A stretch of 21,485 bases of DNA from Malassezia furfur (GCA_052055015.1 JBQJIT010000005.1), one strand, 5' to 3'; counted from the first letter of the stretch, positions 1 through 20,072 are shown. Notes: generated by a model from the letters alone, not told the origin. Made by a program: numbers and translations.

Positions 1-933
1 CGACGAGCGCGACGTGTACGATGACGCGTCTTCGTCCGCACGGCTACCAGAAAGACTTGCGCTCTGCAGCTGCGCGTCCAAATCGTCCATCGGCTCGCGC
101 GCACGCGGCGGACGGGGCGCGGCGCGGCGCGTCGTCAGCTGGCGGCGCGGCGCGTATGCGGCCGCCGAGCCGGGCGGTACATCGAGTTCCGACGTCGAGT
201 CGCTCAGCATCGACGCGTTGTCGGCCCCGACGGCGCTCCCGCCGGTGATCTCCTCAAGACGACCCACGAGCGGCATTGCAAACTGCGGGGGCTCGACGTG
301 GCCCGTGAGGATCTCTTGCGCACTAAGTTGCTCGCCGTACGTCTTGCGGTTGGCATCAGGGCGGTCGAGCAGGACAGTGCCCTCGATCGTCACGCCGCCA
401 TACAAGCCGCGGCTCATGCTGTAGCTAAACATCGCCGACATCTTCATCTCGGCATTCAACGCGGCACTCGCCTCGCCTGAGCGCCCAAGCGGCCCGACGG
501 CCAGCGCCAGGTTTCCACCAAGCTGCAGTGAGCCGGACGACATAAAGGTGCGCACGGCCGCGCGCGAGTTGAGCACAATCAGGAAATCAACCATCTCAGC
601 GCCGGCGTTGAAGCCGCCGCCCAACCCGCCGATACCGATCGCCGTAGGCGCCGACCATTCTGCGTGAGGGAGCGTAGGACGTACCGCCATTCGGCAGCTT
701 GGCAAGCACCACGCCTGTACCGGCGCGCGCGCTCATTAGGAACCCGATCCGGTATACGGTAAAGCTGCGTCAGTGCGCGGCGACCCACATCGCGATGCCC
801 TTAGCCTTGCGCATGACGCTCGACGGGATCACCCTGTCGAGCGAGCTCGTGGTGCCCGGCTGGCAGAATTTGTCGAGGATCTGCGTGAGCAGCGTCGACG
901 TGCCTTCTTCGCCCTGCGCACATCCGACTCCAT
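1..933 (-). CDS. YSC84: Ysc84/Lsb3/SH3YL1-family SYLF-domain actin/endocytosis protein, 3' end beyond window; exons 933-904, 880-789, 764-685, 659-<1
   Basis: Spliced translation MESDVRRAKK/ILDKFCQPG...VIPSSVMRKAKGIA/IFTVYRIGFLMSARAGTGVVLAKLPNG/EWSAPTAIGIGGLGGGFNAGAEMVDFLIVLN...LQLGGNLALAVGPLGRSGEA...FSYSMSRGLYGGVTIEG matches SYLF-domain motifs. It needs three tiny introns, so the ORF track misses it. An alternative in-frame ATG exists at 969. The paralog name (YSC84 vs LSB3) cannot be resolved. Confidence 0.88.
660..684 (-). other. 25-nt spliceosomal intron (YSC84-like intron 3)
   Basis: GTACGTCCTACGCTCCCTCACGCAG; removal gives LPNG-EWSAP. Confidence 0.9.
765..788 (-). other. 24-nt spliceosomal intron (YSC84-like intron 2), in-frame TGA
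   Basis: GTGGGTCGCCGCGCACTGACGCAG; removal gives KGIAIFTV. Confidence 0.88.
881..903 (-). other. 23-nt GC-AG intron (YSC84-like intron 1)
   Basis: GCACGTCGACGCTGCTCACGCAG; removal joins MESDVRRAKK to ILDKF, resembling the family N-terminal helix. Confidence 0.75.
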
Positions 934-957
934 CGTCGTCCTCCGGTGAGCGGGGTC

Positions 958-967
958 GCCACGTGGC
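958..967. promoter_or_regulatory. GCCACGTGGC E/G-box, candidate promoter element for the YSC84-like gene
   Basis: CACGTG at 960-965, 26 nt before ATG 933 on the minus strand; same motif recurs at other gene starts. Confidence 0.5.
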
Positions 968-1143
968 ATGATAGGGTCCGGGCGCCAGCGCGTGCGCACC
1001 GCACCACAACAGCACCGCAACTACAGGGCTACAGAGGACGCACCGAGCGACGTACACGCCCTGCATGGTCAGTACCATCGCGTTGGCCGCGAGGGCGCGC
1101 GCGTCGTCGTTGTCGCCGGCGCCTGCGCGTCCGCACGGGCCAT

Positions 1144-1152
1144 GCCACGTGG
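1144..1152. promoter_or_regulatory. GCCACGTGG E/G-box, candidate promoter element for GCN2
   Basis: CACGTG at 1146-1151, 23 nt before ATG 1175. Confidence 0.5.
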
Positions 1153-1174
1153 ATGCCGGCGTCCTCCAGCGACC

Positions 1175-4100
1175 ATGGGGGTGCCGCCGCGGCCTGCCGA
1201 GGAGCTCGCGGAGCTGCGGCGCACAGAGAAAGAAGCCATTGAGTCCATCCTTGGCGATGACTTTGCCGTCGTCCCGTCGACGGCGTGGCATGGCGCTGCG
1301 CAGGTCGAGACGTACGAGGTGGTGCTGCGCCCGGAAGACGAGTCACAAAAGGCGCACATCGCGGTGGTGGTGCGCCTCACGCTCACACGCACCTACCCCA
1401 ACACGGTACCGAGCGTGCAGGTGCGCAGCAATGATCCACGTACGCACGGACTCGCTGCTGAGCAGCTCGCGGCACTCGGCGAGACGCTGCATGCCAAGGC
1501 ACGCACGCTCCTCGGCGCCGAAATGGTGTGGGAGCTGGTGAGCGCCGGGCAAGAGTTTATCAGCGTGTACAATACGGCGCCCGTCCGCGACTCTTCCACA
1601 TCCCGCCTAAGTCTCGAGGAACGCATGAAGCAGCGCGCACGCACCGAGCAGCAGGACGAGGCGCGCCGTGCCCAAGAGCAACACGCCCAGGAAGAAGAGG
1701 CCGAGCGCGCGCGCGAGCAGCAGCTTGCGGATGAAATTGAGAAGGCAACACAGCGGCAAAAGGCCGCCATCCGCGAGGAGCGCAAGAAACTGCGCGACGC
1801 GCCGATGCCCACGCCTGCTGTCCCCGCGCCCACCGAGGCGCGCCGCGTCGACTGGGAGCGTGCGGACGCCGAGGCGTTTGCGCTTGAGGCCGTGCGCATC
1901 GACGACCACACTATGCGGCGGGGCACGCTGCTTGAGACGCACGCGCTCACGCACAGCTTCCTCGCGATGCCGTCCGAGGCAATGCCGGGCACGATGCTGT
2001 ATGCACTCGACGTGACGCCGATCAGTGCGCCATACTACGCCGGTAACAATGGCGCACGCAAGCTCGCCAGCGTCGAGGAGGAGCTTGTGGCTCTACAGCG
2101 GCTCACGGCGCCGACGCTCGTGCCGATCCTCGGGTTCGCGCGCGTGTCACGGCCGACGCCGGATCTGCCCCAGGCGACGGCGCTGTGCATCGTGCGGGGC
2201 TGTGCGAATGCATGGCGCATGAGCCAGCTCCTCGCGCAGTGCCGCACGCTGCCCTGGCCAAGCGTGCGGAGCCATGTGCTGCGCCTGCTCGATGCGCTGC
2301 ACACACTGCACGCTGCCGGCCTCGTGCATCGCCAGGTCGCACCGGAGCATATTGTCCTCGAGCAGGACCGGGTGCGCCTCGGCGGCGCATGTACGCCGCG
2401 GCGCCTGCTCGATCTGCACCGCTCCAATGCCCTCAACGCGCTCCCTACGCGCGAGACGCCCGCGCCGGACGCGTGGCGCTCGCCCGAGGCCATCAGCGAC
2501 CCGATCACCTATGCGCCGCCGCGCGACTTGTGGGACCTGGGCCGGTGTGCGTGCCAGATGCTGTTTGGCACACAGGTTATCTATACGTACGCCTCGCCCG
2601 AGCAGCTCTTTGACTCGATGCACGGCAGCGACATGGACGAGGCGCGCGCATTTTTGCAGCGGCTTATGCATCGCTCGCCCAAGGTGCGGCGTAGCGCCGC
2701 CGAACTCCGTGCACTGCTGGACGAGACGAGCGCGGCGCTGTGGCGCACGGACGATACCGCCGCGTCGGTGCCCGCGCTGCCGACACACTCGCTCGAGGTG
2801 CCGACGCGCGCGGCGCCGACGCACCGTGCGCCCAAAGCACGCGAGCCTATCGGCTCCTTTTGGCAGCTACGCAACTTGCCTGCGGCGCCCGCGCCGCAGC
2901 CCGTGTCGCGCTACTTGAGTGACTTTGAGGAGGTCGAGTTCCTCGGCAAGGGTGCGTTCGGTGTCGTGGTCAAGGCGCGCAACAAGCTCGATGGACGCTT
3001 CTACGCGGTGAAAAAGGTGCGCCTGAGCAGCTCGGCGGCCGAAGAGGAGCGCACCATGCGCGAGATCATGACACTGTCGCGCCTCGACCACCCCCATATT
3101 GTGCGCTACGTCACCTGCTGGATCGAAGAAACCCAGGTCCCGGGCCTCGCGGGGCTCGGCGCCGAGTCGTCGACGGATGCGGCCATGACCACGAGCCAGC
3201 AAATGGACGCCAGTCTGCTCCGCGCCCTCAACCGCTTTACGCCTGCGGGCCTTGGCGGCGCGAGCCATGACGACGACTTTTTATCCACGGATCGCACCGA
3301 TCCTTTGAGCGACGCCGATGCGCTCGTCGAGTTTGGGCCGGTGTCGAGCGACGTGTCCGGCGCACAGGCCGACCCCGCCGAGAGCTCGTTTGCGAGCAGC
3401 GACACGAGCTCGACGCTGTCGTCGAGCGGCGCAAGCTTGGCCAGCCCACCACGCGCGCCAATGTCGTCGTCGCACGACCGCAGCACAGGTGCAACGCGCG
3501 TCCTCTACATCCAGATGGAATACGTCGAGAACCAGACGTTGAGTGATGCGATTGAGCGTGGCCTGTCGATCGACGAGGCGTGGCACATTTTCCGGCAGAT
3601 GCTTGAGGCGCTCGCTCACATTGCGAGCGTCGGCATCATCCACCGCGACCTCAAGCCAAGCAACGTACTGATGTACGCCAACGGGGACATCAAGATTGGC
3701 GACTTTGGCCTCGCGACGACCAACCTGCAGACCATTGAGACGGGTCTCCGCGAGTCGGTCCTGAGCGAGCACGCCATGGGCGCACATGGCGACGACACGG
3801 AGCTTACCTCGGGGCTCGGCACCTTTTCGTACATTGCGCCCGAAGTCCTCTCGAAGCACGGGCTGAGCACACGCTACAACTTCAAGGTCGATATGTTTTC
3901 GCTAGGGATCATGTTCTTCGAGATGATTGCGTCCCAGCGCTACTACAAGACGACGATGGAGCGCTACCAGCTGCTGCGCGACTTGCGGCAGCCTTCCATC
4001 AACTTCCCCGCGGCGTGGGACACGACGCAGTTTGCCGCACAGACGCAAATCATCCGCCAGCTGCTCGACCACGACCCGAGCCGCCGGCCGTCGCCGATGG

Positions 4101-6225
4101 ACATGCTGCACAGCCCGCTGCTCCCGCCCAAGATGCAGGACGAGTACGTGGAGGAGCTCCTGCGCCTCGCGGCGCGGCCTGCGAGTACGCACCGGCACCA
4201 GCTCATCGCCTCGCTCTTCTCCAAGACGGACGCGGACGAGGTGCGTGACTTCACATTCGACACGGGCGCGCAGAGCGACGAGGACGACGTGCTCGTTGGC
4301 GTCGTGTGTCAGTACCTCCGCAGCGTGTTTCAGAAACGCGGCGCGGTGCCGGTGCACCCCCCGCTGCTCGTCCCGCCGAACGATGTGTACGCGGGCGAGA
4401 CGAGCGTCGTCAAGCTGCTCGACCGCACGGGCAACCTCGTGCTGCTTCCGTACGACTTGACGGTGCCGTTTGCGCGCGTGTGTGCGCGCAGCGGCCACCT
4501 GCGCCTGAAACGCTTTGACATCGCCGACGTCTACCGCGAGAACCTGCTCGCCGGGGGTCAACCGCGCGCGGTACTCGCCGCAAGCTACGACATTGTCTCG
4601 CCCGAGGCCGACTTTACCTCGGAAGCCGAGGTGCTCGGCGTGCTCGACGAGCTGCTCGAGATCCCGGGGCTTGCGGGCAACCCGTGGGAGATCGAGGTGG
4701 GGCACGCCTCGATTGCCGACACGCTCCTCGCGCGCTTCCCTGCGCGGCTCCGCGCGTCGATCCTCGGCGTCTTGCCGCACCTCGGCGTACGGGGCAGTGA
4801 ACACCGCGCGCGGCAGCAGCTCACGCAGCTTGGCATGTCGGCCGCGCAGCTCGAAGAGCTCGAGGCCCTCCACTTGCGTGGCGATGTCGCCGACACCACC
4901 GAGCAGCTGCGCGCGCTGCTCACCCCGACGGAGCGCGCGGCGCTCGACGCGGCGCTCGCAGACGTGCACCGCGTCTCGCAGCTCGCACGCCAGTTTGGCG
5001 TGCGTCGCCGCGTGCTGTTTGTGCCGCTGCTCGCGTACGGCTTCCAGCGCTACGAGCAGGGCATCATCCTCACCGTCGTCCAGCACACCAAGCACCGCGA
5101 GGTGCTCGCAGTTGGCGGGCGCTACGACGCGCTCCTCCGCCGTTTTGCGTTCCCCCGCGCCTCGTCGACGGCGAGTCCGGTGCCGGGCGCCGCCGGCGTG
5201 CAAATCGCCGTGGGGAAGATTGTCGCGGCGCTCGCCAAGTACCAGCAGGTAAATGTGCCCAAGCTCATGGGGCGCCCCGAGGAGGAGCGCACGCTCGGGC
5301 CCTGGACGCCGCGCCGGTGCGGTACGTGTGGCACACTCACCCAGAATGTTATCTCGCCGCTAGTGCGCCCGGCCTGCTTGATCTGCGCATCGAGTTGTGT
5401 ACGCTGCTGTGGGCCAACGGCGTGAGCGCCGACATCCAGTACGAGAGCAGCGCCGGCGAATCGCTCGAGACGACCACGTCCATGTGCCGCGCTGAAGGTA
5501 TCCTCTTTCTTATCCTCGTGCGCGCCCACAACCCGGCGCTGAAGGTACGCGAGGTCATTCCGCGCACCGAGCATGAGGTGCTGCGTGAGGATCTGCTGCC
5601 CTTCCTGCATGACCGCATTGCACGCCAGCGCCGCATCGACCTGCACACTGCCGGCGGCACGCAGGCGCGGCCCAACGTCCCTGATGTCCAGATCAAGGCG
5701 CCATCGCTGGTCAAGCTTGCGCCGTCCACGGCCGCACCGCTCCCTCTGCGTACGGTGCCGCCTTCGGACGTGCATGTGTCGCTCCCGCCGCGGCCCGACC
5801 GCGCGCGCCGCGACCGCCACGGCGAGCGTAAGCTCAAGCCCGCAGCACACCAGGCGCTTGCCGAAAAGGCCGCCGGCGAAACGGCGCGCCTGGCCGATGC
5901 ACTGTCGACCAACAAGCTGCCTGTCTTTGCCGTGGACCTCGCACCCAGCCTGCTCACACGCTTTGCGGCGGTGGCTGTCGCGCCCGACGACGTGTTCCGC
6001 GCGCAGTTCGCCGACACCACGCACGAGGAGCGCGAGTATCTCCGCACGCTTCGCACGCAGATTTTGCATGCGCTGCGTACCGACGATGCGAGCACACCGA
6101 CGCCGCCGCCCAGCAGTGCACTGCCCGGTGCTGCGCGGGCCGAGGCGCCGACAGGCACGCACACAGGCACGCACCGCGCGCTGCTCTACTCGATCCGCGA
6201 GGGGCGCCTCGTGTTGACGGAATAG
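1175..6225 (+). CDS. GCN2: eIF2-alpha kinase GCN2 (about 1675 aa); exons 1175-5321, 5345-6225
   Basis: N-terminal RWD domain (EKEAIESIL...TYPNTVP), charged region, pseudokinase (VHRQVAPEHI), kinase with insert (SRYLSDFEEVEFLGKGAFGVVVK, HRDLKPSN, KIGDFGLA), HisRS-like domain (LPYDLTVPFAR, LAVGGRYD). The C-terminal part is joined through a 23-nt intron (PRRC-ECYLAAS...LWANGVSAD). Start chosen on GACCATGG context and RWD position. Confidence 0.95.
5322..5344 (+). other. 23-nt spliceosomal intron (GCN2)
   Basis: GTACGTGTGGCACACTCACCCAG; links the frame of ORF 968..5425 to the frame of ORF 5317..6225. Confidence 0.92.
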
Positions 6226-6236
6226 CCGCTAGGTAC

Positions 6237-7189
6237 CTACTCGACCCGGTCATGCTCGACATCCGCAAAATGGCTGTCGTGCGCGTTGTCCGCCAGCGCG
6301 ATCGGCCCGTCGTGCTCCGTCAGCACCGAGTCGTCGCCCGTATACAGGAACGCATCGTAGAGGCCCACGCCCAGTAGGCCACCGACGACCGGCGCAAGCA
6401 CCGGGCCAAATAGCCAGTACGCGCCGTCGTGCGTCCAGAGCTCTTTGCCATAGCCGAGCAGCATCAGCGCCAGCCTAGGACCCAGATCGCGCGCGGGGTT
6501 CAGCGCGTAGCCCGTGTTGTAGCCCAGCGCGGAGCCGATGGCCAGCACCGCGAAAAAGAGGCCGATCGGCATCGTGCCCCGGCGCAGCGCCCAGTTTCCC
6601 TGGTCGCCCATGGCAGCTACAAGGAAGAGCAGCGTCGCGGTGCCGACCAACTCGGTCATATACGCCGTCGAGCGCGCAATCAGTGCGCTTGGGAATGTGA
6701 CAAACAGCCCGGCGGTCGCACGGGGGCCGACGACCGTGCGCGCCGCGCCGCCCTCAAACACGGCTATGCTGTCGTGGTACAGCGCGTACACGACCAGTGC
6801 CGCTACAAAGCACCCCAGCACTTGCGCAACAATGTAGCTCAGCACCTTGCGCTCTGGGAAACGGCGCAGCACCCGCATCGCGATCGTCACTGCAGGGTTG
6901 AGGTGCGCGCCGGAAATCCCGCCAGCTGCCCAGCACCCAAGGGCAATGCCGGCCGCCCACGCGATCCGACACTGCAGGTAGTTGCCTGGGTCAGCACACC
7001 TTTACCTACCAAACGCGCCGGCCATGCCATGCTCCGCATAGTGCAGGCGCACCTCGCACTCGACACCCGTGCCAAACAGGATGACCATGAATGCACCCCA
7101 AAATTCGCTGGTTGAGTATATGCTACGTACGCAAACTCTTCTTTGTACGCTTGGCGCACACGGTGCCAGCGGTGCAACGTCGCGGCCAT
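6237..7189 (-). CDS. Aquaglyceroporin (MIP family, GlpF/AQP3-type), about 301 aa; exons 7189-7131, 7107-7010, 6985-6237
   Basis: Spliced protein has EEFAEFWGAFMVILFG, GISGAHLNPAVT (NPA1) and GYALNPARDLGPR (NPA2 followed by RD, the glyceroporin signature); spliced length 906 nt is a multiple of 3. Confidence 0.92.
6986..7009 (-). other. 24-nt intron (aquaglyceroporin intron 2), in-frame TAA
   Basis: GTAGGTAAAGGTGTGCTGACCCAG. Confidence 0.88.
7108..7130 (-). other. 23-nt intron (aquaglyceroporin intron 1)
   Basis: GTACGTAGCATATACTCAACCAG; removal gives EEFA-EFWG. Confidence 0.88.
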
Positions 7190-7219
7190 GGTGTCTGAAG
7201 CGCAGCCAGGCCCGTGCGC

Positions 7220-7228
7220 GGCCACGTG
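7220..7228. promoter_or_regulatory. GGCCACGTG E/G-box between the RMT2 stop and the aquaglyceroporin start
   Basis: CACGTG at 7223-7228 abuts the RMT2 stop codon and lies 33 nt before aquaglyceroporin ATG 7189. Confidence 0.5.
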
Positions 7229-8442
7229 CTACCATAGCTGCAGGTGGGCTACCGGGAGATAATACTGCGCCAGGGTCCAGTACTGCCGCTTGACCCCGTT
7301 CCAGTCCTCGGCCTCGACGCGGGGGGAGAGCGTTTGCCATTCGGTCACCAGCCCAATCTCGCGCAGGTCCAGCTCGCTCACGCGCGTATACACCTCGTAC
7401 AAGAACCGGTTCGTCGCCGCGAGGCCGTGGAAGAAGGAGAAACGCGCCTCGGGGCCGGACAGTACGTTGGGCAGGCACTCGAAAAAGGCGCGCAGGTCGT
7501 TGTAATCTTGCGAGTAGGTATCAAAATAGATCGCGTCAAACACGCCAAGCTTCATGGCGATTTCGCCGTCCGGGTCGTCTTGCGGTTGCAAAAAATCCTC
7601 CCAGGTCCCTTCGAAGATTTCCACGCCGGGCCGCTTGTCCCAGCCTTGCTCGCGCAAAAATCGCAGTGCATCGGGGTGCGGCTCAATAATGACGTGCCGC
7701 CCAGGGCGGTACTTCTGGATCGCCTCGTCAATGATGCCAAGACCAAAGCCGACGTTGAGCACGGCAAAGCCTTCGTCCTGTCCGGCGCACAGCGCATGCG
7801 CCGACGCGTGCATGATCTCGTTCTCCCACTCGGCCATCACCATGTTGCGATCCTTGTCCAGACACCGCCACTGCCCGCGCTCGTCTTTCTCAAACGTGAG
7901 CGGGGTCGCAAGGAACGCGCGGTTGCTCGCACTCGCCTCGTTCTGCGTGCCGGGCACCAACGTGAGCGACGCGCCGTTTGTCTGCTCAGCAAGCTCCGCA
8001 TGGTCCATGGCCTGGGCCTCGTGCTCGGTGTTTGCGTCAACTTTGCGCTCGAGCAGGTTCGCCAAAAACGACTGCCGCACACCCTCTGCGGTGAGACACG
8101 CCTCTACGCACCTTCGAGAAGCAGCATGTAGCACTCGTTTGCATTACGTGACCACGCCAAGTCACCTGCCGTATATCCGAGCCTGTCCACGGCATTCCAG
8201 AGTCCACCGTAGCGCAGCAGTACGCGAATGGTCTCGGCGCTGCCGGCGTCGGCCGCATAGTGCAGGGCGTCCCAACCCAGCGCTTCGTCCGCGTACCAGG
8301 CGTCTGCGGAGCCGTCCCATGCACCGCTATCCTCGTCCTTATGTTGCAGCAGCCTCTTGCACTGCGCAGCGTCGCCCGCTGCCGCCGCGCGCAGCAGCTG
8401 CTCGTTGCGCTCCGTGCGGGCCGCCGGCCATGCGTCGTCCAT
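7229..8442 (-). CDS. RMT2: Arginine N-delta methyltransferase Rmt2 (ankyrin repeat + GAMT-like SAM domain), about 395 aa; exons 8442-8112, 8085-7229
   Basis: Ankyrin-like N-terminus (GWDALHYAA...LLRYGGLWNAVDRLGYTAGD), then VMAEWENEIM, VLNVGFGLGIID, HVIIEPHPD, FDAIYFDTY, FSFFHGL, all Rmt2 motifs. Confidence 0.93.
8086..8111 (-). other. 26-nt intron (RMT2)
   Basis: GTGCGTAGAGGCGTGTCTCACCGCAG; removal gives YMLLLE-EGVRQ. Confidence 0.9.
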
Positions 8443-8488
8443 CGTCGCAAATTTTGGCCACGTGCGTCTTGCGTCCGGCGGCGATCGC
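8443..8488. promoter_or_regulatory. 46-bp divergent (bidirectional) intergenic region containing AAATTTTGGCCACGTG
   Basis: Lies between RMT2 ATG (8442, -) and nucleoporin ATG (8489, +); CACGTG at 8459-8464. Confidence 0.6.
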
Positions 8489-10045
8489 ATGTCGCTCTTT
8501 GGATCGAGCAGCGCGAACCCCGCGGGGGGTTCTAACCTGTCCCGTTCGGTATCGTTCGGTGGGCAGGAAAACAAGCCTGCGTTCTCGTTCGGGAATACCC
8601 AACCCGCACAAGGAAGCGCGGCGGGGGCCAAGCCGGGCTTGTTTGGCGCGTCCAGCACGCAGCCGTCCCAAGGCACGGGCGGGTTGTTTGGCGCACAGAG
8701 CACGTCGCAGCCCGCACAAAACACGGGTCTTTTTGGCCAGAGCACACAGCAGGGGCAGTCGGGCGGCCTGTTTGGACAGTCGAACAACGCACAGCAGGGG
8801 CAGACAGGCGGAGGCCTCTTCGGCGCCCAAAACAACACACAGCCAGGGCAGTCCGGTGGACTGTTCGGTGCGCAGAACAACCAGGCCGGACAATCCGGAG
8901 GACTGTTCGGTGCGCAGAACAACCAGGCCGGGCAATCCGGAGGACTGTTTGGCGCGCAGAACAACCAGGCCGGGCAATCCGCGGGACTGTTCGGTGCGCA
9001 GAACAACCAGCAGCAGGGCCAATCCGGCGGCCTCTTTGGCCAGCAAGGCCAGCAAGGCCAGTCGGGTGGCCTCTTTGGCCAGAACAACCAGCAGGGCCAG
9101 TCGGGTGGCCTGTTTGGGGCACAGAACAACGCACAGCAGGGCCAGTCGGGCGGGTTGTTTGGCGCGTCGCAGCCCAAGCCCGGCCTGTTTGGCCAGCCGA
9201 GCACCGGCACTGCGGCGCCATCCGGCGGGCTGTTTGGCCAGAACACCCAGCAGGGCCAGTCCGGTGGCCTGTTTGGTGCCAAGCCCGCGGGCGGCCTGTT
9301 TGGCGCGAGCACGAGCGGGATGGGCGCGCCGGGCAGTACATCAGGCGGCCTATTTGGTGCGTCGACGACGGCGCAGCCGGCACAGCCAGCACAAGGCTTC
9401 CTGCAGTTCCCCTACTACCAGCGTGAGCGCTTCAACGAGCTGCCAGACGCACAGCGTTCGCTGCTCGAAGAGATGGACAAGGTGATCCAGACGCAGACGC
9501 AGATCAAGAACGAGCTGCGTGCACGCGACCAGACGAGCGAGCCGCGGCGGCTACCTGCCGAGGTGCACGAGCTGAAGTCGCTGCAAGAGTCGATTGTCGC
9601 ATCGCTCGAGTCGGACGTGCAGCGGCTGCAGACGATCAATGCACGCGTCGAGCGTGACCGGATTGACCAGTTGCAGCTGCACCACGTCGCTGAGCATGCC
9701 AAGAGCAAGCTGAGCGACGGAAGCAGCTTTGTGGACTGGCTGCGCAGTTTCTACGAGCGCGCGGCGGACGAGGACGTGGCGCGCATCCACCGGTACCGCG
9801 TGACGATGGAGCAGATCGAGCGGCACCTACTCTCGCTCGACCAGCGCGAGCAGTTTGCGCCGCGCGTCATTGCCGAGATCATCTACGACCAGAACGCGTC
9901 GTTCATGGGCTTTGCTGAGCAAATCGCGACGCTGCATGCCGAAATCGAAACACTCAAGAAGGATTACGTAAAATGGTACCAGGCGCGGTACCAGTCCGTG
10001 CGCGACCCGTTCGCGCCGGGGGTGTCGGTGGCCGAGGGTGCATAG
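8489..10045 (+). CDS. NUP49: GLFG-repeat central-channel nucleoporin, Nup49/Nup58-like (518 aa)
   Basis: MSLFG start, many GGLFG repeats in Q/N/S/G-rich spacers, then ERFNELPDAQRSLLEEMDKVIQ and a coiled-coil C-terminus as in the Nup49/Nup58 family. FG-nucleoporin identity is strong; the exact ortholog is less certain. Confidence 0.8.
   Translation: MSLFGSSSANPAGGSNLSRSVSFGGQENKPAFSFGNTQPAQGSAAGAKPGLFGASSTQPSQGTGGLFGAQSTSQPAQNTGLFGQSTQQGQSGGLFGQSNNAQQGQTGGGLFGAQNNTQPGQSGGLFGAQNNQAGQSGGLFGAQNNQAGQSGGLFGAQNNQAGQSAGLFGAQNNQQQGQSGGLFGQQGQQGQSGGLFGQNNQQGQSGGLFGAQNNAQQGQSGGLFGASQPKPGLFGQPSTGTAAPSGGLFGQNTQQGQSGGLFGAKPAGGLFGASTSGMGAPGSTSGGLFGASTTAQPAQPAQGFLQFPYYQRERFNELPDAQRSLLEEMDKVIQTQTQIKNELRARDQTSEPRRLPAEVHELKSLQESIVASLESDVQRLQTINARVERDRIDQLQLHHVAEHAKSKLSDGSSFVDWLRSFYERAADEDVARIHRYRVTMEQIERHLLSLDQREQFAPRVIAEIIYDQNASFMGFAEQIATLHAEIETLKKDYVKWYQARYQSVRDPFAPGVSVAEGA
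8849..9016 (+). repeat. Coding tandem repeat, 4 x 42 nt (QSGGLFGAQNNQAG)
   Basis: Near-identical units begin at 8849, 8891, 8933 and 8975; more degenerate copies flank them. Confidence 0.9.
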
Positions 10046-13000: not shown

Positions 13001-14250
13001 CGCAGGCTCGCCGTGTACGGGCGCGCGGGATAGGCGAATGTGACGTGGTCCAGCGTAAAGCTCGGCTCGTACGTCGGCAGCTGCGTCGGATTGGGCGCGC
13101 CCGCCGGTACGCCGAGGATCGCGCCGTCGGTCGACCGCACGTCGACGTGCGGCTCGCGCTCGATCACGGCGCGCATCTTGCGCAGCGCCGCACCGCTCTC
13201 AATGAGGCTGAGCAGGTGGGGAATGACCATCGCCATGGAGAACATCGAGCTGAGGTAGTTGTAGAAGCACGAAATGACCCCGTCCATCTGCTCACGCCCC
13301 TTGGCGATCTGCACCGAGCCCCACCAGAAGCCGAGCGAGTAGAGCGCGTTAATCACAAAGTACATCGATGCCACGTCTCCGCCCTTGACCGCCGCGCGCC
13401 GCGTGACAAAGCGCGCCAGCGGCGCAATGTACAGTGTATGCATCCGCGTGACAAGGATGTGCGTCAGTTCAAACGAGTGCACCACGCGCACAGACGAGAG
13501 CACCTGCTCGACAAACGTCGACAGACGGCTGTCGATGTCGAGCGCGGACGAGGTCACCATGTCGCCCAGCGCACCAAGCGTCGTCGTGACAAGCACTGCA
13601 AACACCAGCACGGTGAGCAGCACACCCGCAACGGTCGGCGCACGCGAAAAGGCCATCACCATGCTCGTGATCAACGTCGCGACCGCGTTCGCAAAGAAGC
13701 CCAACTTCTCGCCAAACGCCGCGCGGATCTGCGTCACGTCGCGGTTCGCGCGCGAAGCAATTTCGCCAGGGCCGTGCACATCAAAGAAGCCCGGATCCTG
13801 CACAATGGCCGCGGCAAAGTATTCCTCACGCAGTCGGTGGCACAGCTCGTGCGTCGCGAGCGGCATTAGCGTCACAAAGCCCCAGCTCGTGAGCAGCACC
13901 AGCACACCGATCACCACATTGATCCACGCCAGCAAATTGCTGTGGCGCTGCGCGTACGCGGGATCCGTCCACTGGTACTCCTTGACCGTATGCGACCAGT
14001 AGCCGTACAGCAAGTCGATCGCCGACAGACCGCCACCAGCCACGATCGCGCACGCCAGGCCCAGCACGTACAGCACCGTCGGGTGCCGGACGAACGCCAT
14101 CGGCGCGCGCACCGGCGAGGGCACGGGCGGCGCAAACGAAAAGAGGTACAGAAAACCTCGTAGGCGCGAGCGGTGTTGGTGTAGGATCGCCGCTCGGTAC
14201 GGCGCCTCGTACGCCTGCATGGCGTTGTCCACTCCGTCCCCCGCGGTCAT
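10048..14250 (-). CDS. Full-length ABCB (MDR/P-glycoprotein-like) ABC transporter, TMD-NBD-TMD-NBD, up to 1400 aa, apparently intronless
   Basis: Two NBDs: GPSGSGKST/LSGGQRQRIAIARAL/LCLDEATSALD and GTSGSGKSS/LSGGQRQRVCIARAL/LLLDEATSALD, each preceded by a TMD. Start could be 14250 or 14220. Substrate unknown. Confidence 0.93.
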   Translation of the reverse strand: MTAGDGVDNAMQAYEAPYRAAILHQHRSRLRGFLYLFSFAPPVPSPVRAPMAFVRHPTVLYVLGLACAIVAGGGLSAIDLLYGYWSHTVKEYQWTDPAYAQRHSNLLAWINVVIGVLVLLTSWGFVTLMPLATHELCHRLREEYFAAAIVQDPGFFDVHGPGEIASRANRDVTQIRAAFGEKLGFFANAVATLITSMVMAFSRAPTVAGVLLTVLVFAVLVTTTLGALGDMVTSSALDIDSRLSTFVEQVLSSVRVVHSFELTHILVTRMHTLYIAPLARFVTRRAAVKGGDVASMYFVINALYSLGFWWGSVQIAKGREQMDGVISCFYNYLSSMFSMAMVIPHLLSLIESGAALRKMRAVIEREPHVDVRSTDGAILGVPAGAPNPTQLPTYEPSFTLDHVTFAYPARPYTASLRDVSIVFPPGKVTALVGPSGSGKSTITALLGREYDPETSNVPVRGDEKFGAGDPEGDTPGDAPGEKAAATREKSPERAASRVSQDGDVEEARERVRGGGRVLFGGVDVRELNLRWLRSQIAVVRQNPQLFSGTIAENVAMGLTAVQPDASVADEAVRAKVQDALVKAEAWTFVKKLPQGMDTHLGGGRNVHLSGGQRQRIAIARALVREPQILCLDEATSALDTSTEERIKRMLQREQTARGMTTIIVAHRLSTVQHADQIVTLTHGAVAEVGTHRELMRHTGGVYHRMVMHNRIASGLPLDDEAEPDVPDYATGVETTTQASSSAWGPPRTGAPARAAPNAPEGGKHWQPPRLADVSMRGAGVTGASWGASDRRDEARAADDADSADEKNEGAGAGAVTKRAPRRGLWHVSQGQHGVFVVGIAFAVALAASFPITGWISGYAIDALGIQNDPGRLRDRSNWWGMWFIVVAAVALMVGFFASFFLELASERMMNAIKVKSLHALLRQEVAFFDRKENASGALSSAVFSHAQSIGTATGVVAVQLIMAAGNLLGSVIMSISMSWELALTCVPGLLSLLVASFFNVQLAERYEKVVQSPIDGTAAYIAEIVDAIPTVASLGREQRALRHMERESTVREPFRWVLATSSACFAYSQFALYGSTGLMLYWGTRLVVTERIDASSMFAVFEGVFIGVFAAVRLATFLPDVARARHAIKVVEGWWARTPQISQDADAGVAWPPSGPRDLVLSHVELRYPQRPDVPALRHLNLTIHENQTVAFCGTSGSGKSSILSLLQRFYDPCRGTITYGGLDLRAIPLPTWRAEMAYVSQDPVLYEGTLRWNLSLGAVDPERVTDAEIEAACREACVWDFAMALPEGLDTMIGLKGSSLSGGQRQRVCIARALLRRPRILLLDEATSALDAESEVLVQQALDNACKGCTTITIAHRLSTIRRADLICVVEDGKIVEMGSHDELLHKHGRYFELVEAQL

Positions 14251-14261
14251 CGCATTCGTGG

Positions 14262-14278
14262 CGCGTGGCCAAAAATTT
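14262..14278 (-). promoter_or_regulatory. AAATTTTTGGCCACGCG, variant of the upstream motif, before the ABC transporter
   Basis: Nearly identical to AAATTTTGGCCACGTG at 8449-8464. Confidence 0.45.
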
Positions 14279-14334
14279 GCCCTAATTTCCTCTTTCTACG
14301 CGCTGTGGAGGCCCCGGCTCCGGCCCCGGCATTT

Positions 14335-16926
14335 CTACGCCCCAAATAAGAAATTCATCTCGCTCGCCGACAGGCGCGAGGCTGCGTCAGACCCGGTCAC
14401 GTACCGCGCGACAGCTGCGTGCTGCCGTCCAGCGCCGCCTTGGCGAGCGCACGCTTCTTCTCTTGTAGCTGCAGAATCCGCTCCTCGACCGTGTCGGTGA
14501 TCGACAGCTTGTAAATGTACACGTCTTTCGCTTGGCCGAGCCTGCGTCAGCGTCCCACGTACCGGTGCGCACGATCGAAGGCCTGCTCCTCGATCTGCGG
14601 ATTCCACCACAGGTCGCACAGGATCACCCGGTTGCAGCACGTCAGATTTAGACCCGTGCTTCCGGCCTTGAACGAGATCAGAATCACGCGCGTCTCGGGC
14701 CGCGTGCGGATCGCCTGGAGCGCCGACTCGCGCGCAGTGCGCGACATGGTTCCATCGTCTGGGTCAGGGGCTCACGTACATCGCACGAAATCCACGCCGT
14801 GCTTCCGCAACACGGGGCCCAGCAGGTCCAGAAACGAGGTAAACTGGCTAAACACGATCGTCTTGTCGTCGCGCGCTTCGCCGCGGATCGTATCGAGGAG
14901 CGCGACGACCTTGTCGACCTTGGATGAGCTCCGTGAACCCCAGTCGATGCCACGCTCTGCCTCGTCCTTGGCCTGCGCACGACACCCCGCACACAGGACA
15001 TGCCCGCCTTCGGCGGGGTGCGACGCCGGCAGCGACACTTGGCACCGCTCACAGTGCTGCGAACGCACCGACAACCCGGACAGCAGCTCGGCCAGCTCGT
15101 CGTCCGCACTCATGCCAGAGTCGGCGGCCGCGACGGCAGGCGCATCAGGTGCAGAAGGCGCGCTTGGCGACTGGCCCGTAATCAATGCAGGGTGATTACA
15201 CGCTGCGTCAGCGCACCACCTACCTTGCCGTAGCCTCAGGAGCATCACCAGCATACCCATCATGTCGTGCTTGCCCTCCGCCTCAACCGAAAGGCTGTCC
15301 TTAATGCACAGTTCAATCTTCCGGTAGAAGGCACGCTCCTCGTCACTCGCAAAGTCGAGCATGACCACATCGACGTTGCGCTTCGGCAGCTGCAGCAACT
15401 TCTTGCCATTGTATTCGGCGTCCTTGGTGCGCCGCAGCATGATGGTGCGTAGAATGACACACAGCCGCTTCATTCCGTTTTCGCTGCGGGCGCGCATGCT
15501 GCGTGAGGCGGGCCACGTACGTGCTCTTCAGCGGGTCGTCAATCTTTTCGCGGAAGTGCGACAGGTCGTCAAACGGCGCCGCACGCAAAAAGTGCATCAG
15601 ACTAAACAGCTCCAGAACATTGTTCTGCAGCGGCGTTCCGGTCAGGCACCAGCGCGACGCCGCATTCAGCGACAGTTCGTAGCATGCCTGGCTGCTCTTG
15701 GCACGGTAATTTTTGATGTTGTGCGCCTCGTCTGCGTCAGTAAGCGACCTACCCAGCACCACCCGGAGCCATTTTACCTGGAACAGCGGCGCGCGCGCCA
15801 CTTTAGCGCGTGGCTTGCGCACTGTGCGGCGTGGTAGCGGCGTGTCCGAGTCGGACGACGCCGAAGCAGAGCTCGACGCGTCCGAATTCAGCGTAAGAGG
15901 ACGCGCTTTCGATCCTAGACTCGGCGCGTCTTCGTCTAAGTCGGCAAGGTACTGCGCATGCTCGTTGCTGGCCGTCGCGTACGTCGTGATCACCACGTCG
16001 GCGCGCCGCAGTACATCCGCCGACTTGGCGCGGTGGGGGCCATGGTGCACATACACCTGCAGTTTGTGCCCTGTCTTTTCGTTCGCCTCGCGCTGCCATT
16101 GCTCAACGACCGCGAGCGGCGCAATAATGAGCGTCGTCTTGGTACCGGAAGCATACACTGCCTTGCGCCGCTGCGCCAGCATGTCCCCCACCTCGTCCAC
16201 AAACACGGCGCCATCGGGATCGTCTTGGCCACTGGTCGGCGGCGCTTTGGCTTTGGCCTTGGGCTTGCCGAGGCCCTCCTTGGCCAGGTTTGCCGCCAGA
16301 TCATCGGATGGCTCGCTCGATTGCATGCTCTCCAATGTGCGATGCAGCAAGATGAGTGCGAGCATTTGCACGGTCTGTGTGAGCCTGCGACGTACTTTGC
16401 CCAATCCCATATCGTCCGCGAGGATGCCACCTTTGATGTCACCGCACTCGCGCTGCTGCATCCACTCGATGCCTTGCACTTGATGCGGCAGCAGGCGGCA
16501 CAGCAGACCAGGGACATTTGCCTTGTTCATGTCGACCTGCTCGACGACCGTCACGAGACTCGAAAGCATCGCCTGCAGCTGCTTCTCGCGGTCTTTGGCC
16601 GAGAGATTGCTCCGCTCGAGCGGAGTACCGGGTGCTGGCGGCGTCGCTAGTGCGCGATCTGGTGTCCACCGCTTTGGTGTGCGCGTCTGCGGCGTGCCGC
16701 GCGTCGGTGTGCTGGGACCCCGGCCCAGCATCCAGGGGCTCGGCGGCTCGGGCGTCGACGGCATCATGCGCACGCGCGGCTCGGTGCGCCACCCTGTGCG
16801 CCCACGCACGCTCGGCGAGCCTGTGCCCTGTGGTGTGCGTGGGCTCCCACGGTCCTGTTGGGTCCCGGGCGTGGGCGAAGCGAGGCCCAGCTGCTGCGCC
16901 AGCAGGCGCTGCCGCATGGCCTCCAT
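14335..16926 (-). CDS. SNF2-family ATPase, Rad5/Rad16-like group (Ris1/Uls1/TTF2-like), about 813 aa; exons 16926-16396, 16374-15753, 15731-15521, 15498-15224, 15202-14780, 14758-14563, 14541-14405, 14381-14335
   Basis: After removing 7 tiny introns: [115 protein letters not shown]; spliced length 2442 nt is a multiple of 3. Confidence 0.9.
14382..14404 (-). other. 23-nt intron (SNF2 intron 7)
   Basis: GTACGTGACCGGGTCTGACGCAG; gives C-terminus [15 protein letters not shown]. Confidence 0.85.
14542..14562 (-). other. 21-nt intron (SNF2 intron 6), in-frame TGA
   Basis: GTACGTGGGACGCTGACGCAG; restores DRAHR-LGQ. Confidence 0.93.
14759..14779 (-). other. 21-nt intron (SNF2 intron 5), in-frame TGA
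   Basis: GTACGTGAGCCCCTGACCCAG; restores FVR-YDG. Confidence 0.93.
15203..15223 (-). other. 21-nt stop-free in-frame intron (SNF2 intron 4)
   Basis: GTAGGTGGTGCGCTGACGCAG; restores RLRQ-ACNHP. Confidence 0.9.
15499..15520 (-). other. 22-nt intron (SNF2 intron 3)
   Basis: GTACGTGGCCCGCCTCACGCAG; joins the frames of ORFs 15343..16956 and 14772..15497. Confidence 0.9.
15732..15752 (-). other. 21-nt stop-free in-frame intron inside Walker B (SNF2 intron 2)
   Basis: GTAGGTCGCTTACTGACGCAG; restores VVL-DEAH. Confidence 0.92.
16375..16395 (-). other. 21-nt stop-free in-frame intron inside Walker A (SNF2 intron 1)
   Basis: GTACGTCGCAGGCTCACACAG; restores GLGK-T. Confidence 0.92.
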
Positions 16927-16959
16927 CGTGTTGATATGTGGAGGAACGTACCACACTGG

Positions 16960-18294
16960 CTACGCGGTCCGTGCGCGTTTGCTGGGGGAGTCTATGGTGT
17001 CGTGAGCGCGGCCTTCACGCTTAGGGGGTTCCGCGAGCATCGCACCATCGGCGTCCTCGAGCTTGATCGAGGGAGGCGCTGGCCCATCGATGTGCGCCTC
17101 TTCCTTGGGCTTTGTTTCGTCGTCGTGGGCCCACACCTCTCCGTCCGGCGCCTCGACCGGCTCGGTCTTGGGCTCCGCTTTCACGTCGGCCTCTGGCTCG
17201 TACGCCAACAGCGAGGGCAGGTCTGCGTAAAAGAGGAACTGCATTAGTTGTGCACGTACCGAATGTGCCCAGCCCGCCCGATCGCCCCAGATGGCGCGCA
17301 GGCGGTCGGCGACCTCTTCGTACCGCTTGGTACGGATGCCGTACCACCGCTCAGCAAAGTGGAAGACGTGCCGGTCGACGGGGATGCTGCTCGCTTGGTC
17401 CAGCGACATGAGCAGGATACAGTCGGCCACTTTGGGGCCGATACCTGCGAGAGGCAGCAGCCGTTCACGGGCGTCGTAGTACGACAGGTGGCGTAGCTCC
17501 ATTAGATCGGCATACACGGCCTCGTCCACTTTTTCGTCGGGTGCATCAGGAGGCAAGGAGTCTCGCGCTTTTTCGCACAGCATCGACGCGGTCTGTGCGA
17601 GGTACTTGGCCCGGTACCCGAATCCGAGCGCACGTAGCCGACCCTCGACATCGGGCTGCGCGAGCCGCGTGGGCGGCGGAAAAGGATGGTACGCAAGCGA
17701 GACATGCTTTTCTGGTGCATCCGCGAGCTCGTTCATGTCGAGGGTATGGCACAGGCGGGCGCCTGGTGGGTAGTCTTCGACATGCACGCACGGCGAAAAG
17801 TGCTCACACAGCTTGTGCACCATCTGACTGATGCGGGGAATGTTGTTGTTGGAGCTGCAAATGAACCTGTGTGAGCAGGATACGTACGCGCACATGCACT
17901 CCCACGGGTCCTGCCGCAGGATGTTGCCCCCCGCGAACCGCTGGGCGTGCTTCGCGAAGACGGGGTCCTTGGCGCTCCACTCCTCGAACCACGTCGCCGC
18001 GGGTGTGTCGAGGTTCAGGTAGTCCCGTAGCCAGTGCGCGGTGTCAGTGCGTGCTGCGTTCGGCGCATACACGGTGCGGTGCAGCAGCGCATGCGACGCA
18101 CGGTCGTGCGTGACGAACACGACGCGGTCACGAAGGCACAACGACCACTCGAGCCGCCGCGGCTCTTTGCCGCGCGCAGGCACAAGCACCTTGCGCCACC
18201 GGAACGCCTGCCCGCACTGGTGCGCAATGGTCAGCGGCAGTACCACGGGACACTGCGGCGACAGCGCCAGCACCTCGTACGCGGCTGGTGGCAT
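16960..18294 (-). CDS. OGG1: 8-oxoguanine DNA glycosylase/AP lyase, about 430 aa; exons 18294-17888, 17866-17260, 17238-16960
   Basis: CGQAFRW, ILRQDPWECMCA-FICSSNNNIPRI, LRALGFGYRAKY, HhH-GPD region GIGPKVADC...IPVDRHV with catalytic Lys and Asp, AGWAHS-FLFYADL. Confidence 0.95.
   Translation of the reverse strand: MPPAAYEVLALSPQCPVVLPLTIAHQCGQAFRWRKVLVPARGKEPRRLEWSLCLRDRVVFVTHDRASHALLHRTVYAPNAARTDTAHWLRDYLNLDTPAATWFEEWSAKDPVFAKHAQRFAGGNILRQDPWECMCAYVSCSHRFICSSNNNIPRISQMVHKLCEHFSPCVHVEDYPPGARLCHTLDMNELADAPEKHVSLAYHPFPPPTRLAQPDVEGRLRALGFGYRAKYLAQTASMLCEKARDSLPPDAPDEKVDEAVYADLMELRHLSYYDARERLLPLAGIGPKVADCILLMSLDQASSIPVDRHVFHFAERWYGIRTKRYEEVADRLRAIWGDRAGWAHSVRAQLMQFLFYADLPSLLAYEPEADVKAEPKTEPVEAPDGEVWAHDDETKPKEEAHIDGPAPPSIKLEDADGAMLAEPPKREGRAHDTIDSPSKRARTA
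17239..17259 (-). other. 21-nt stop-free in-frame intron (OGG1 intron 2)
   Basis: GTACGTGCACAACTAATGCAG; restores AGWAHS-FLF. Confidence 0.9.
17867..17887 (-). other. 21-nt stop-free in-frame intron (OGG1 intron 1)
   Basis: GTACGTATCCTGCTCACACAG; restores ECMCA-FICSSNNN. Confidence 0.9.
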
Positions 18295-18329
18295 GGGGCA
18301 TCGGGCGATCGGGCGTCGTCGCGACGACC

Positions 18330-20072
18330 ATGGCGGTTCGGCGGACGACGCCGGCGCGGGCCGGGCGTGCGGAACGCGCGCCGCGTATGGACGCGCTTGC
18401 GCCGCGGAAACCAACGGGGCGCTACGTGTACGAATCGTCGGAAGATCAGAGCGATACGGACCCTGTGAATTGGCGCGACGTGCCGCGGCCCAAGTGGTGG
18501 GCAGACCTTGCGAGCGACGACGACGACGACGACGACGCCGATGAAGGCGAGCACACCGCCGACCTGTCCGCGGTGCGTCTTGCCAATGAGCTTGATCCAT
18601 GGGAGGCATGGGAGGCCGAGAGCCGGCGGCGCGCCTGGGTACGTCGCGTCCTAACCCAGCGGCCCATCTTGCACCAGGGCCCCGTACGTGTGCGGCACAC
18701 GTCGACGCCGCGTGCCGCGGACCGCAGCATTCAGGAGGTGTCGGACTTGCTGTCGCGCTTCCAACTGCAGCAAAAAGAAACCGAGCGCATCGAGCGCGAG
18801 TCGTTCGACCAGCGCAACGCCTCGCTTTGGGAGGGCATTGAGCAAGCGATCCGCGACGCCGAAAAGCGCGCGGTACACGAAGCTGAGCAGCTCGCGCACG
18901 CACGCAAACGCCAAGAGCAGGCCGAGGCTGAGGCGAAGCGCGCGCGCGAGGCCGAGCTCGCGCGCATCGAGCGCGAGAAGCGCGCGGCCGAAGAGGAGAA
19001 AGCGCGGGCCGCTGCCAAGGAAAAGGAGCTCGCCGAGCTCGCCCAGAAGGAGGGCGTGTACAATACAATGCGTGGTGGCGAGCGCATCTGGCCGATCGCT
19101 GCCAAGGAGTATGCGCACTGGCAGGCCGAAATGCGCACCATCAAAGAGGAGATTCTGCCCGCCGTCGCCGCGAATCCAGCATGGCGGAAGCAGTGCTTTG
19201 CCGCGAAACGTGCCATCACGCCCAAGATTGGACAGCTGACCAACTCGCGTGCAGAAATTGCACGCATCACGAATGCGATCGCCGCCGTGCTGCAGGAGGC
19301 CAAGGACGCGTCCGATACGCAGGCGCAGCGCTTCCTCTACTACTGGACGCTCAACCATCTCGCCAAGGGCCTCATCCGGCAGGCCGAGCAAGAGGTCGCC
19401 GCGCGGCAAGAGACGGCGTATCCCCTCGCGCGCACTGCGCTCGGGCTTATGCTCCGCGGCCACGGCGAGCTGGGCCATGTGCTCATGGCGCGCCTCGTGA
19501 AAAAGTGCCCCTACGTCTTGGGCTACGTCCCCGAGCGCCCGGCCGACGCCGACGAGCGCACGTACCGCAAAATGCTCGGTTTCCGCCCGGACACGGAGGA
19601 GTCGACGCACATGTACGTGTCGCGCATGGCGGGCATCGCCGCGCTCTACTTTGCGTGCCTGCAAACGGCGCTGCCGTCCGTCGCGCAGTGCAGCGGTCTG
19701 CCGCCGTCGGTGCCGCTGTCCGATGCGGCGCAGGCGGTGCCCGAGGTGCTGCGCCCTGCGCGGCTGTGGACGTGGCAGGTGCGGTGCACCACGCCGCCGG
19801 TCGCGCGGCAGTCGCTCGTCCCGTCGCTGTGGTGCACGTTCTTGGAGGTGGCCGGGATCGCTGCCCAGGAACGCTACGGCCGACAGGCACACAAGCTCTG
19901 GACGCTGCTCCTGGAAGAGGGCGTGCGCCACAAGCAGCTCGGACCAGCCGAGGCATCGGGCGACCAGGAGGCGCTGCACGCCGCGCGCGTGCGCCTCCAG
20001 CTTGTGCTCGAGTCGTGGCAAAAGACGCACTCGCTCGCCGAGCACGCGTCGGCGGGGCGGGAGATGGAATGA
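18330..20072 (+). CDS. GLE1: mRNA export factor Gle1, about 573 aa; exons 18330-18638, 18660-20072
   Basis: Acidic N-terminus, E/K/R/A-rich coiled coil, then GLE1 domain motifs ITPKIGQLTNS, LNHLAKGLIRQAEQEV...AYPLA, LMARLVKKCPY, YVSRMAGIAALYFA. Start 18330 chosen for GACCATGG context; 18387 is an alternative. Confidence 0.9.
   Translation: MAVRRTTPARAGRAERAPRMDALAPRKPTGRYVYESSEDQSDTDPVNWRDVPRPKWWADLASDDDDDDDADEGEHTADLSAVRLANELDPWEAWEAESRRRAWVRRVLTQRPILHQGPVRVRHTSTPRAADRSIQEVSDLLSRFQLQQKETERIERESFDQRNASLWEGIEQAIRDAEKRAVHEAEQLAHARKRQEQAEAEAKRAREAELARIEREKRAAEEEKARAAAKEKELAELAQKEGVYNTMRGGERIWPIAAKEYAHWQAEMRTIKEEILPAVAANPAWRKQCFAAKRAITPKIGQLTNSRAEIARITNAIAAVLQEAKDASDTQAQRFLYYWTLNHLAKGLIRQAEQEVAARQETAYPLARTALGLMLRGHGELGHVLMARLVKKCPYVLGYVPERPADADERTYRKMLGFRPDTEESTHMYVSRMAGIAALYFACLQTALPSVAQCSGLPPSVPLSDAAQAVPEVLRPARLWTWQVRCTTPPVARQSLVPSLWCTFLEVAGIAAQERYGRQAHKLWTLLLEEGVRHKQLGPAEASGDQEALHAARVRLQLVLESWQKTHSLAEHASAGREME
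18639..18659 (+). other. 21-nt stop-free in-frame intron (GLE1), hidden in an open ORF
   Basis: GTACGTCGCGTCCTAACCCAG matches the donor, branch and acceptor consensus and the modal length of the other introns; no protein-motif check available. Confidence 0.8.

Follow-up and report, generated by a model that had tools for sequence, protein, structure and literature searches.

Tiny introns without a polypyrimidine tract and with a putative branch site anchored to the acceptor in a window of the GC-rich yeast Malassezia furfur

Anchoring of the branch site to the acceptor, without a polypyrimidine tract, has been described for Yarrowia lipolytica, Trichomonas vaginalis and Giardia lamblia (Irimia and Roy 2008, PMC2483917, available excerpt). 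In Y. lipolytica, one base separates ACTAAC from CAG/TAG in 72.5% of the introns, which places the branch A at position -6 from the 3' end (PMC13309789, available part); the excerpted intron table of PMC2483917 lists 719 introns for this yeast, with one column reading 204 and another 268.75. Very short introns are known from T. vaginalis, where one of 23 nucleotides (nt) was termed among the shortest known (2025, PMC12316389), from Paramecium, with an average of 25 nt (PMC8997360), and from Stentor, where they are exceptionally small (PMC9505925), each according to the accessible part of the source. The wording "branch point" or "branch site" does not occur in the accessible Stentor account (PMC9505925). 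For Malassezia sympodialis, Zhu et al. (2017, PMC5389616, available text) give 5350 introns in a manually curated annotation; these average 30 bp, and RNA-seq supports 99% of them. Thus, tiny Malassezia introns are already on record, but "branch" and "lariat" are absent from the available main text of that paper, and no description of the branch/acceptor geometry in Malassezia was found in the literature searched (subscription journals were outside the scope of the search). Here, we describe the introns in a stretch of 21,485 bases (66% G+C) from Malassezia furfur (GCA_052055015.1, JBQJIT010000005.1), referred to as the window.

The window contains 17 coding-region introns, distributed over seven of its ten closely packed genes, and the intron statistics given here cover this set from one 21-kb window. 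We consider it likely, judging from the sequence, that these are ordinary U2-type introns of a GC-rich Malassezia yeast, compacted to an apparent lower size limit. Sixteen are of the GT-AG type and one is of the GC-AG type. All 17 are located on the coding strand of their own gene, and all 17 terminate with CAG. Their lengths are 21 nt (eight introns), 22 nt (one), 23 nt (four), 24 nt (two), 25 nt (one) and 26 nt (one). That eight introns have exactly 21 nt and none is shorter suggests a hard size floor.

A first set was obtained by a pattern scan for segments that begin with GTNNGT and end with CTNA-N(1-5)-YAG, which returned 16 coding-strand segments of 21-26 nt. The 17th intron (881-903) came from homology, not from the motif. 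The final set of 17 was decided by frame repair and homology, independent of the branch motif.

The 3' ends are strikingly uniform. C-T-N-A is found at -9 to -6 in 16 of the 17 introns, with the putative branch A at -6; the intron of RMT2, with the A at -7, is the sole exception. The motif reads CTCA in eight introns, CTGA in seven and CTAA in two, and position -5 is C in 15. Seen as a candidate branch site of the yUnAy/CTRAY form, it reads C-T-N-A-Y in 16 introns and CTCAA in one. Only the C, T, A and C of this site are fixed, the two bases upstream of the CT being unconstrained, and a strong, near-invariant ACTAAC-like consensus was not encountered among the 17 introns. The donor has the form G-T/C-A-C/G-G-T, with +1, +5 and +6 invariant (G, G and T) and A at +3 in 15 of 17. 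At donor position +4, C is found 13 times and G four times, never A or T; related species with about 50% G+C (see below) have A, T, C or G at this position, which looks free and appears to track base composition.

A 21-nt intron consists of a 6-nt donor, an unconstrained spacer of 6 nt and a 9-nt branch/acceptor element. The spacers between donor and branch motif (126 nt in total) are 46% pyrimidine and 13% T, the T content being no higher than in the whole window, and the longest pyrimidine run past the donor has 2-7 nt. By both measures, none of the 17 introns has a polypyrimidine tract. Only three bases separate the putative branch A from the AG. Two introns (15203-15223 and 15499-15520) have no A other than that at -6 from the end of the donor hexamer to the start of the terminal CAG, so that the branch there, if it is an adenosine, must be the -6 A. 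On these grounds, the -6 A appears to be the only sensible candidate for the branch nucleotide. With the branch at position 16 of 21, simple arithmetic predicts a lariat loop of 16 nt. An earlier note on this DNA, made from the sequence alone, had already put the A at -6 in 16 of the 17 introns and at -7 in RMT2, and our recount of the intron set gives identical figures; its count of eight CTCA motifs was confirmed in the same way. Its description of a tract-less intron and its division of the 21 nt into 6 + 6 + 9 hold, and the loop of about 16 nt that it proposed is the value predicted here.

The combined signal is highly specific. The pattern GTNNGT-N6..11-CTNANNCAG occurs 15 times on both strands of the window, and all 15 occurrences are introns. 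In 200 dinucleotide-preserving shuffles, the same pattern occurred 0.13 times on average, with three as the largest number. CAG is present 833 times on both strands; it is preceded by CTNANN in 22 cases, of which 16 are the introns. Exon k-mers match the intron pattern by chance in 1/6828, 5/6818 and 4/6818 cases.

Excision of these segments proves necessary for intact conserved proteins at the level of the predicted gene products. When all 17 are removed, each of the seven intron-bearing genes is open from its ATG onwards, six of them up to a stop codon and one as far as the edge of the window. For comparison, metagenome contigs were scanned with the intronless ABC transporter of the window, which resulted in eight syntenic loci (designated L001 to L008) with 53-57% identity and 48-50% G+C. 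By sequence and identity, these look like three species. The spliced proteins align end to end with the orthologs from L001, L003, L007 and L008, so that no additional coding intron is hidden. The length of seven introns is not a multiple of three, and their removal restores the frame. It is a multiple of three in the other ten, four of which contain an in-frame stop. The remaining six of the 17 are stop-free, all have 21 nt (six of the eight in this length class) and, when read through, add seven residues within conserved blocks. Three of these sites are among those where all relatives lack the residues, besides the OGG1, Rad5-type and Walker A sites described below. Retention of a stop-free 21-nt intron would add seven residues and would not trigger nonsense-mediated decay. 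In Paramecium, stop-free introns with a length divisible by three are said to be avoided; their frequency here (6/17) is the opposite of that pattern.

The evidence for the individual sites is as follows. The YSC84/DUF500-like gene (minus strand) has three introns. Intron 1 (881..903, 23 nt, GCACGT...CTCACGCAG, A at -6) is of the GC-AG type and was detected only via first-exon conservation in L003 and L008. Both the preceding first exon of 10 codons (30 nt) and the downstream ILD.FC are conserved in these two loci, which have an intron at the same place; the window gene model is open from the ATG. Retention of intron 2 (765..788, 24 nt, GTGGGT...CTGACGCAG, A at -6) leads to an in-frame stop, and a 23-nt intron is found at the same site in L007 and L008. 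Removal of intron 3 (660..684, 25 nt, GTACGT plus 10 nt plus CTCACGCAG, A at -6) restores the frame, and the relatives are collinear without an insertion (site 123.3). In GCN2 (plus strand), removal of the single intron (5322..5344, 23 nt, GTACGT...CTCACCCAG, A at -6) fuses two frames into a protein of 1675 amino acids, and the relatives read PRRC|ECY without a gap. The aquaporin (MIP) gene (minus strand) has two introns. Intron 1 (7108..7130, 23 nt, GTACGT...CTCAACCAG, A at -6), in which -5 is A rather than C, restores the frame when removed and has a same-site intron in L001, L007 and L008. Intron 2 (6986..7009, 24 nt, GTAGGT...CTGACCCAG, A at -6) leads to an in-frame stop if retained, and its site is also occupied by an intron in L001. 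The exceptional RMT2 intron (8086..8111, minus strand, 26 nt, GTGCGT...CTCACCGCAG, A at -7) restores the frame when removed, and the resulting junction LLLE|EGVRQSF is collinear with the relatives.

Seven introns are located in the SNF2/ULS1-like helicase gene (minus strand). Intron 1 (16375..16395, 21 nt, GTACGT CGCAGG CTCACACAG) splits the Walker A motif (GLGK|T). If it is left unspliced, GLGKT is broken, while the relatives read GLGK|TVQM. Intron 2 (15732..15752, 21 nt, GTAGGT CGCTTA CTGACGCAG), if unspliced, would represent a 7-residue insertion between VVL and DEAHNIKN as compared to yeast Rad5 and also to the relatives. For intron 3 (15499..15520, 22 nt, GTACGT GGCCCGC CTCACGCAG), removal restores the frame and the relatives are collinear. 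At the site of intron 4 (15203..15223, 21 nt, GTAGGT GGTGCG CTGACGCAG), the relatives read LRLRQ|ACNHP, without the seven additional residues. Retention leads to an in-frame stop for intron 5 (14759..14779, 21 nt, GTACGT GAGCCC CTGACCCAG), where the relatives are collinear, and for intron 6 (14542..14562, 21 nt, GTACGT GGGACG CTGACGCAG), which has a same-site intron of 24 nt in L007 and L008 and none in L001. Removal of intron 7 (14382..14404, 23 nt, ...CTGACGCAG) restores the frame, and the helicase gene then reaches its stop codon; the high-scoring segment pairs (HSPs) of the relatives end here.

OGG1 (minus strand) has two introns. Intron 1 (17867..17887, 21 nt, GTACGT ATCCTG CTCACACAG), if unspliced, corresponds to a 7-residue insertion relative to human OGG1, immediately before FICSSNNNI, and a same-site intron exists in L001 and L008. 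At the site of intron 2 (17239..17259, 21 nt, GTACGT GCACAA CTAATGCAG), L008 reads GWAHT|VLFYADL without an insertion, and L001 has a 42-nt intron. In GLE1 (plus strand), which has one intron (18639..18659, 21 nt, GTACGT CGCGTC CTAACCCAG), L001 reads RRAW|RP and L008 reads RRAW|HA, both without the seven additional residues.

To place the introns of the relatives, HSP breaks, stop-bearing insertions or repair of the open reading frame (ORF) were used, and introns were kept only at an HSP break or a flagged insertion, with donor and branch signals. The two C-terminal SNF2 introns of L001 and two of the four in L008 are placed by pattern only, and their splicing gave no clear ORF gain. The introns are 27-59 nt long in L001, with the A of the nearest YTNAY at -8 to -13 (mode -9); 26-32 nt in L003, at -7 to -10 (mode -8); and 22-30 nt in L008, at -5 to -8 (mode -7). 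Overall, 24 homology- or pattern-placed introns have 22-59 nt, with the A of the nearest YTNAY at -5 to -13; one further intron, read by eye, has its A at -6. In every one of the relatives' introns, the terminal AG is the first AG after the putative branch A. All four bases occur before the branch A, so that the CTCA of the window is part of a genus-wide CTNAY rule. Two closer relatives are represented by read-through ORFs, P0122 (89% identity) and P0128 (about 60%). Both have 7-residue insertions at the same SNF2 sites as the window, and these can be back-translated to 21-nt introns of the form G[TC]NNGT-N6-CTNANNCAG. Because of these compatible insertions, the 21-nt form with the A at -6 is not restricted to a single genome.

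Nine of the 17 introns (660-684, 5322-5344, 8086-8111, 14759-14779, 15203-15223, 15499-15520, 15732-15752, 16375-16395 and 18639-18659) have no same-site counterpart in L001, L003, L007 and L008. A recent gain is not supported, as the P0125/P0128 lineages have SNF2 sites 384, 454 and 546 occupied, so that these introns are at least clade-old; either gain or loss may account for the pattern. The differences between the loci indicate that intron positions turn over between Malassezia clades. The relatives also carry introns that are absent from the window, for example in RMT2 (two or three) and in OGG1 (one additional intron). In the aquaporin gene of L008 (17118-17183), an apparent micro-exon of 15 nt, coding for HINP of the NPA motif, is located between introns of 26 and 25 nt. 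Several even shorter or unusual candidates were discarded. In L002-L005, the nucleoporin gene has a 20-nt candidate (GTACGT...CTCATGCAG), which codes for the conserved TSPLMQY and could not be removed without a frameshift. An 18-nt candidate in the ABC transporter gene of L007/L008 did not coincide with any flagged insertion as compared to the protein of the window. GC...AG "insertions" in variable protein regions lack donor and branch signals and were taken as ordinary indels.

How the acceptor is selected in such introns can be proposed in outline. The donor hexamer GTA[C/G]GT would be followed by a spacer of at least six unconstrained bases and then by a degenerate CU-N-A-C branch site of the yUnAy type. 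The first AG, always as CAG, would be reached three bases past the branch A, which puts this A at -6, and a 21-nt intron would yield a 16-nt lariat loop and a 5-nt tail. With three bases between branch and acceptor, no pyrimidine tract fits; most likely, it is thus the branch-site complex that determines the 3' site, in combination with the general preference for the first AG downstream of the branch. The uniform spacing of -6 is best seen as the end point of a lineage-specific compaction. We infer the identity of the branch nucleotide, the formation of a lariat and the factor requirements. Several points weigh against this proposal. The branch in the relatives was chosen as the YTNAY nearest to the 3' end, so that the use of the first AG is partly true by construction. 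Each species has its own preferred spacing (-9, -8, -7 and -6), which a plain first-AG rule does not predict and which leaves room for a distance optimum. The stop-free 21-nt introns with a length divisible by three (six of eight) are argued for by homology and not by frame repair. Finally, the junctions and the branch nucleotide are deduced from sequence and protein comparison, for 17 introns of a single 21-kb window.

The near-invariant spacing in the window (-6 in 16/17) would also be expected from a dedicated fixed-distance mechanism, in which a changed 3' recognition apparatus measures the acceptor from the branch. A U2AF large subunit that no longer reads the tract, a loss of second-step factors, or a U2 box that tolerates C before the A may serve as examples. 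The species-specific spacings of the relatives would fit, as would the eight CTCA motifs; CTCA mismatches canonical U2 pairing. Also, a table for Stentor, a ciliate with tiny introns, gives both Slu7 and Prp18 as not found (PMC9505925, accessible part). However, the spacings in the relatives range from -5 to -13 and vary even within single loci, which argues against a strict ruler in the genus, and CTNAY with any base before the A is found there, too. The degenerate yUnAy is the branch site of animals, and given this match and the presence of CTNAY in the relatives, no change of U2 is needed. We thus regard a dedicated ruler as rather unlikely. The window and five of the eight related loci (120 kb) have no Rfam match at the gathering score, and hence no small nuclear RNA at that threshold. 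The same motif might not be a branch site at all, CTNAC being read by a protein as an extended acceptor signal while the branch is at another nucleotide, possibly a non-adenosine. The pairing of U2 with CU-N-A-C would comprise only 3-4 base pairs if the canonical pairing applies, which speaks for this possibility, but the motif has the universal form of a branch site (a U two bases before the A and a Y directly after it), its distance from the AG varies in the relatives, so that it is a separable element, two introns have no other A, and a branch closer to the donor would reduce the loop of a 21-nt intron to less than 16 nt. We consider this reading quite improbable.

It is also conceivable that some of the stop-free 21-nt segments are lineage-specific coding insertions of seven residues, or are only partly spliced, since the frame stays open across six of the eight segments of this length, and gene callers do read through them (e.g., P0121 and P0122). 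Yet one of them interrupts the GLGK|T Walker A motif, others are in conserved blocks that have no such residues in human OGG1, yeast Rad5 and all relatives, and all six show the complete pattern of donor and branch/acceptor, for which the match rate of exon k-mers is only 1/6828 to 5/6818. This makes both possibilities very improbable. Removal by a system other than the major spliceosome is to be considered because U12-type introns have their branch site near the acceptor and no tract, and the HAC1/XBP1 introns, which are removed by Ire1 and tRNA ligase, are of similar size (20-26 nt). The U12 consensus is [A/G]TATCCTT for the donor and TCCTTAAC for the branch site. In the window, the donor is GTA[C/G]GT, none of the 17 introns has TATCC, and the branch site is CTNAC, not TCCTTAAC. 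Introns of the Ire1 type have non-GT-AG borders and paired stem-loops and occur in one stress-regulator gene, and a stress-specific substrate is hard to reconcile with 17 segments that are spread over seven unrelated housekeeping genes and all have GT/GC-AG ends. Moreover, where the relatives have an intron at the same site, it is an ordinary one of the GT-AG type, with a length of up to 59 nt. We rate removal by such a system as extremely improbable. In the earlier note, the choice of the 3' site had been attributed to a fixed distance; this does not follow from our data, as the A is 5-13 nt from the end in the relatives and the first AG is used, which fits a first-AG rule equally well. That note also referred to fused branch/acceptor spacing in Yarrowia and in tiny ciliate introns. 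The Yarrowia part is borne out by the available portions of PMC2483917 and PMC13309789, and the ciliate part was not confirmed. The interpretation given there is thus partly supported: the geometry stands, and its proposals on mechanism, including a lower dependence on U2AF or a changed pairing with U2, are hypotheses.

Returning to ordinary U2-type introns recognised through the branch site and the first AG, one may go a step further. We tentatively suggest, while leaning towards doubt, that the major spliceosome works here at a physical floor that is undocumented for fungi, with 21 nt as the commonest class, CU-N-A-C as the branch site and the acceptor three bases further on. As part of this, about four unpaired bases may be left between the donor bound by U6 and the branch site bound by U2. 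If true, recognition of the 3' site would need no pyrimidine tract and possibly none of the second-step factors that serve distant acceptors. Stop-free 21-nt introns, retention of which is invisible to nonsense-mediated decay, would be tolerated or even favoured, and the spacing series of -9, -8, -7 and -6 in the relatives would record a migration of the branch site towards the acceptor.

A fungus in which 21 nt is the usual intron length would be a test bed for the minimal RNA between donor, branch and acceptor, and also for recognition of the 3' site without a pyrimidine tract. Malassezia can be cultured and transformed. Four related species with differing branch-acceptor spacing are a rare series for following the drift of splice signals under genome compaction. 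There is also a practical aspect: tiny introns, many of them in-frame and stop-free, defeat gene predictors. Public annotations of related Malassezia look damaged around them. In the records P0003 and P0004, the ABC transporter is fused to the SNF2 helicase. In P0123 and P0124, conserved helicase residues (DEAxNIKN..., ACNHPA) are missing exactly at the intron sites.

The ten genes of the window code for a YSC84/DUF500-like protein, GCN2, an aquaporin (MIP), RMT2, an FG nucleoporin, an ABC transporter, the SNF2/ULS1-like helicase, OGG1, GLE1 and one unnamed ORF. The best named matches of the window proteins are from Malassezia, namely M. yamatoensis (59%), M. psittaci (57%), and M. cuniculi and Malassezia sp. 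CBS 17886 (both 44-49%). The aquaporin gene, located between RMT2 and GCN2 (6237-7189), is absent in one of the three related species (L002-L005), the gene order being conserved otherwise. The E-box core GCCACGTG occurs seven times in the window, compared to 2.6 expected, and none of 100 shuffles reached seven. Six of the seven copies are in intergenic promoter regions. The E-box sites are at 958-967, 1144-1151, 7221-7228, 8457-8464 and 21435-21442. In L003 and L008, too, CACGTG precedes the YSC84-like gene.

In comparison with the described systems, the window introns resemble those of T. vaginalis and G. lamblia in that the branch is anchored to the AG and a tract is lacking (PMC2483917, available excerpt). 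In these protists, however, the motif ACTAACACACAG is long and near-invariant, the branch A is at -8 and not at -6, and the genomes have only tens of introns, whereas the window has 17 across ten genes, with 21 nt as the commonest class. Ciliate introns fall into a comparable size class, but they are AT-rich and belong to an unrelated lineage. The organism of the window goes to a greater extreme than M. sympodialis, its modal intron length being 21 nt at 66% GC. Yarrowia is closest in geometry, having the A at -6, a branch anchored to the acceptor and no pyrimidine tract, but according to the available parts of the sources, its introns are long, with near-invariant GTGAGT and ACTAAC, while those of the window have 21-26 nt and the donor GTA[C/G]GT. 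Also, only CT-A-C of the branch site is fixed in the window, and the base before the A is C or G in 15 of 17 introns. As the ascomycete Yarrowia and the basidiomycete Malassezia are far apart, the likeness is likely convergent, and the shared geometry is best read as having arisen independently in Y. lipolytica. By their sequence, the introns of the window belong to the kind with a putatively branch-anchored, tract-less 3' structure, in an unusually small total size for a fungus. What sets them apart is the combination of 21 nt as the most frequent length, a branch site of which only CT-A-C is left, GC-rich introns, and a gene-dense genome that, judging by 17 introns in seven of the ten genes of the window, is probably not intron-poor.

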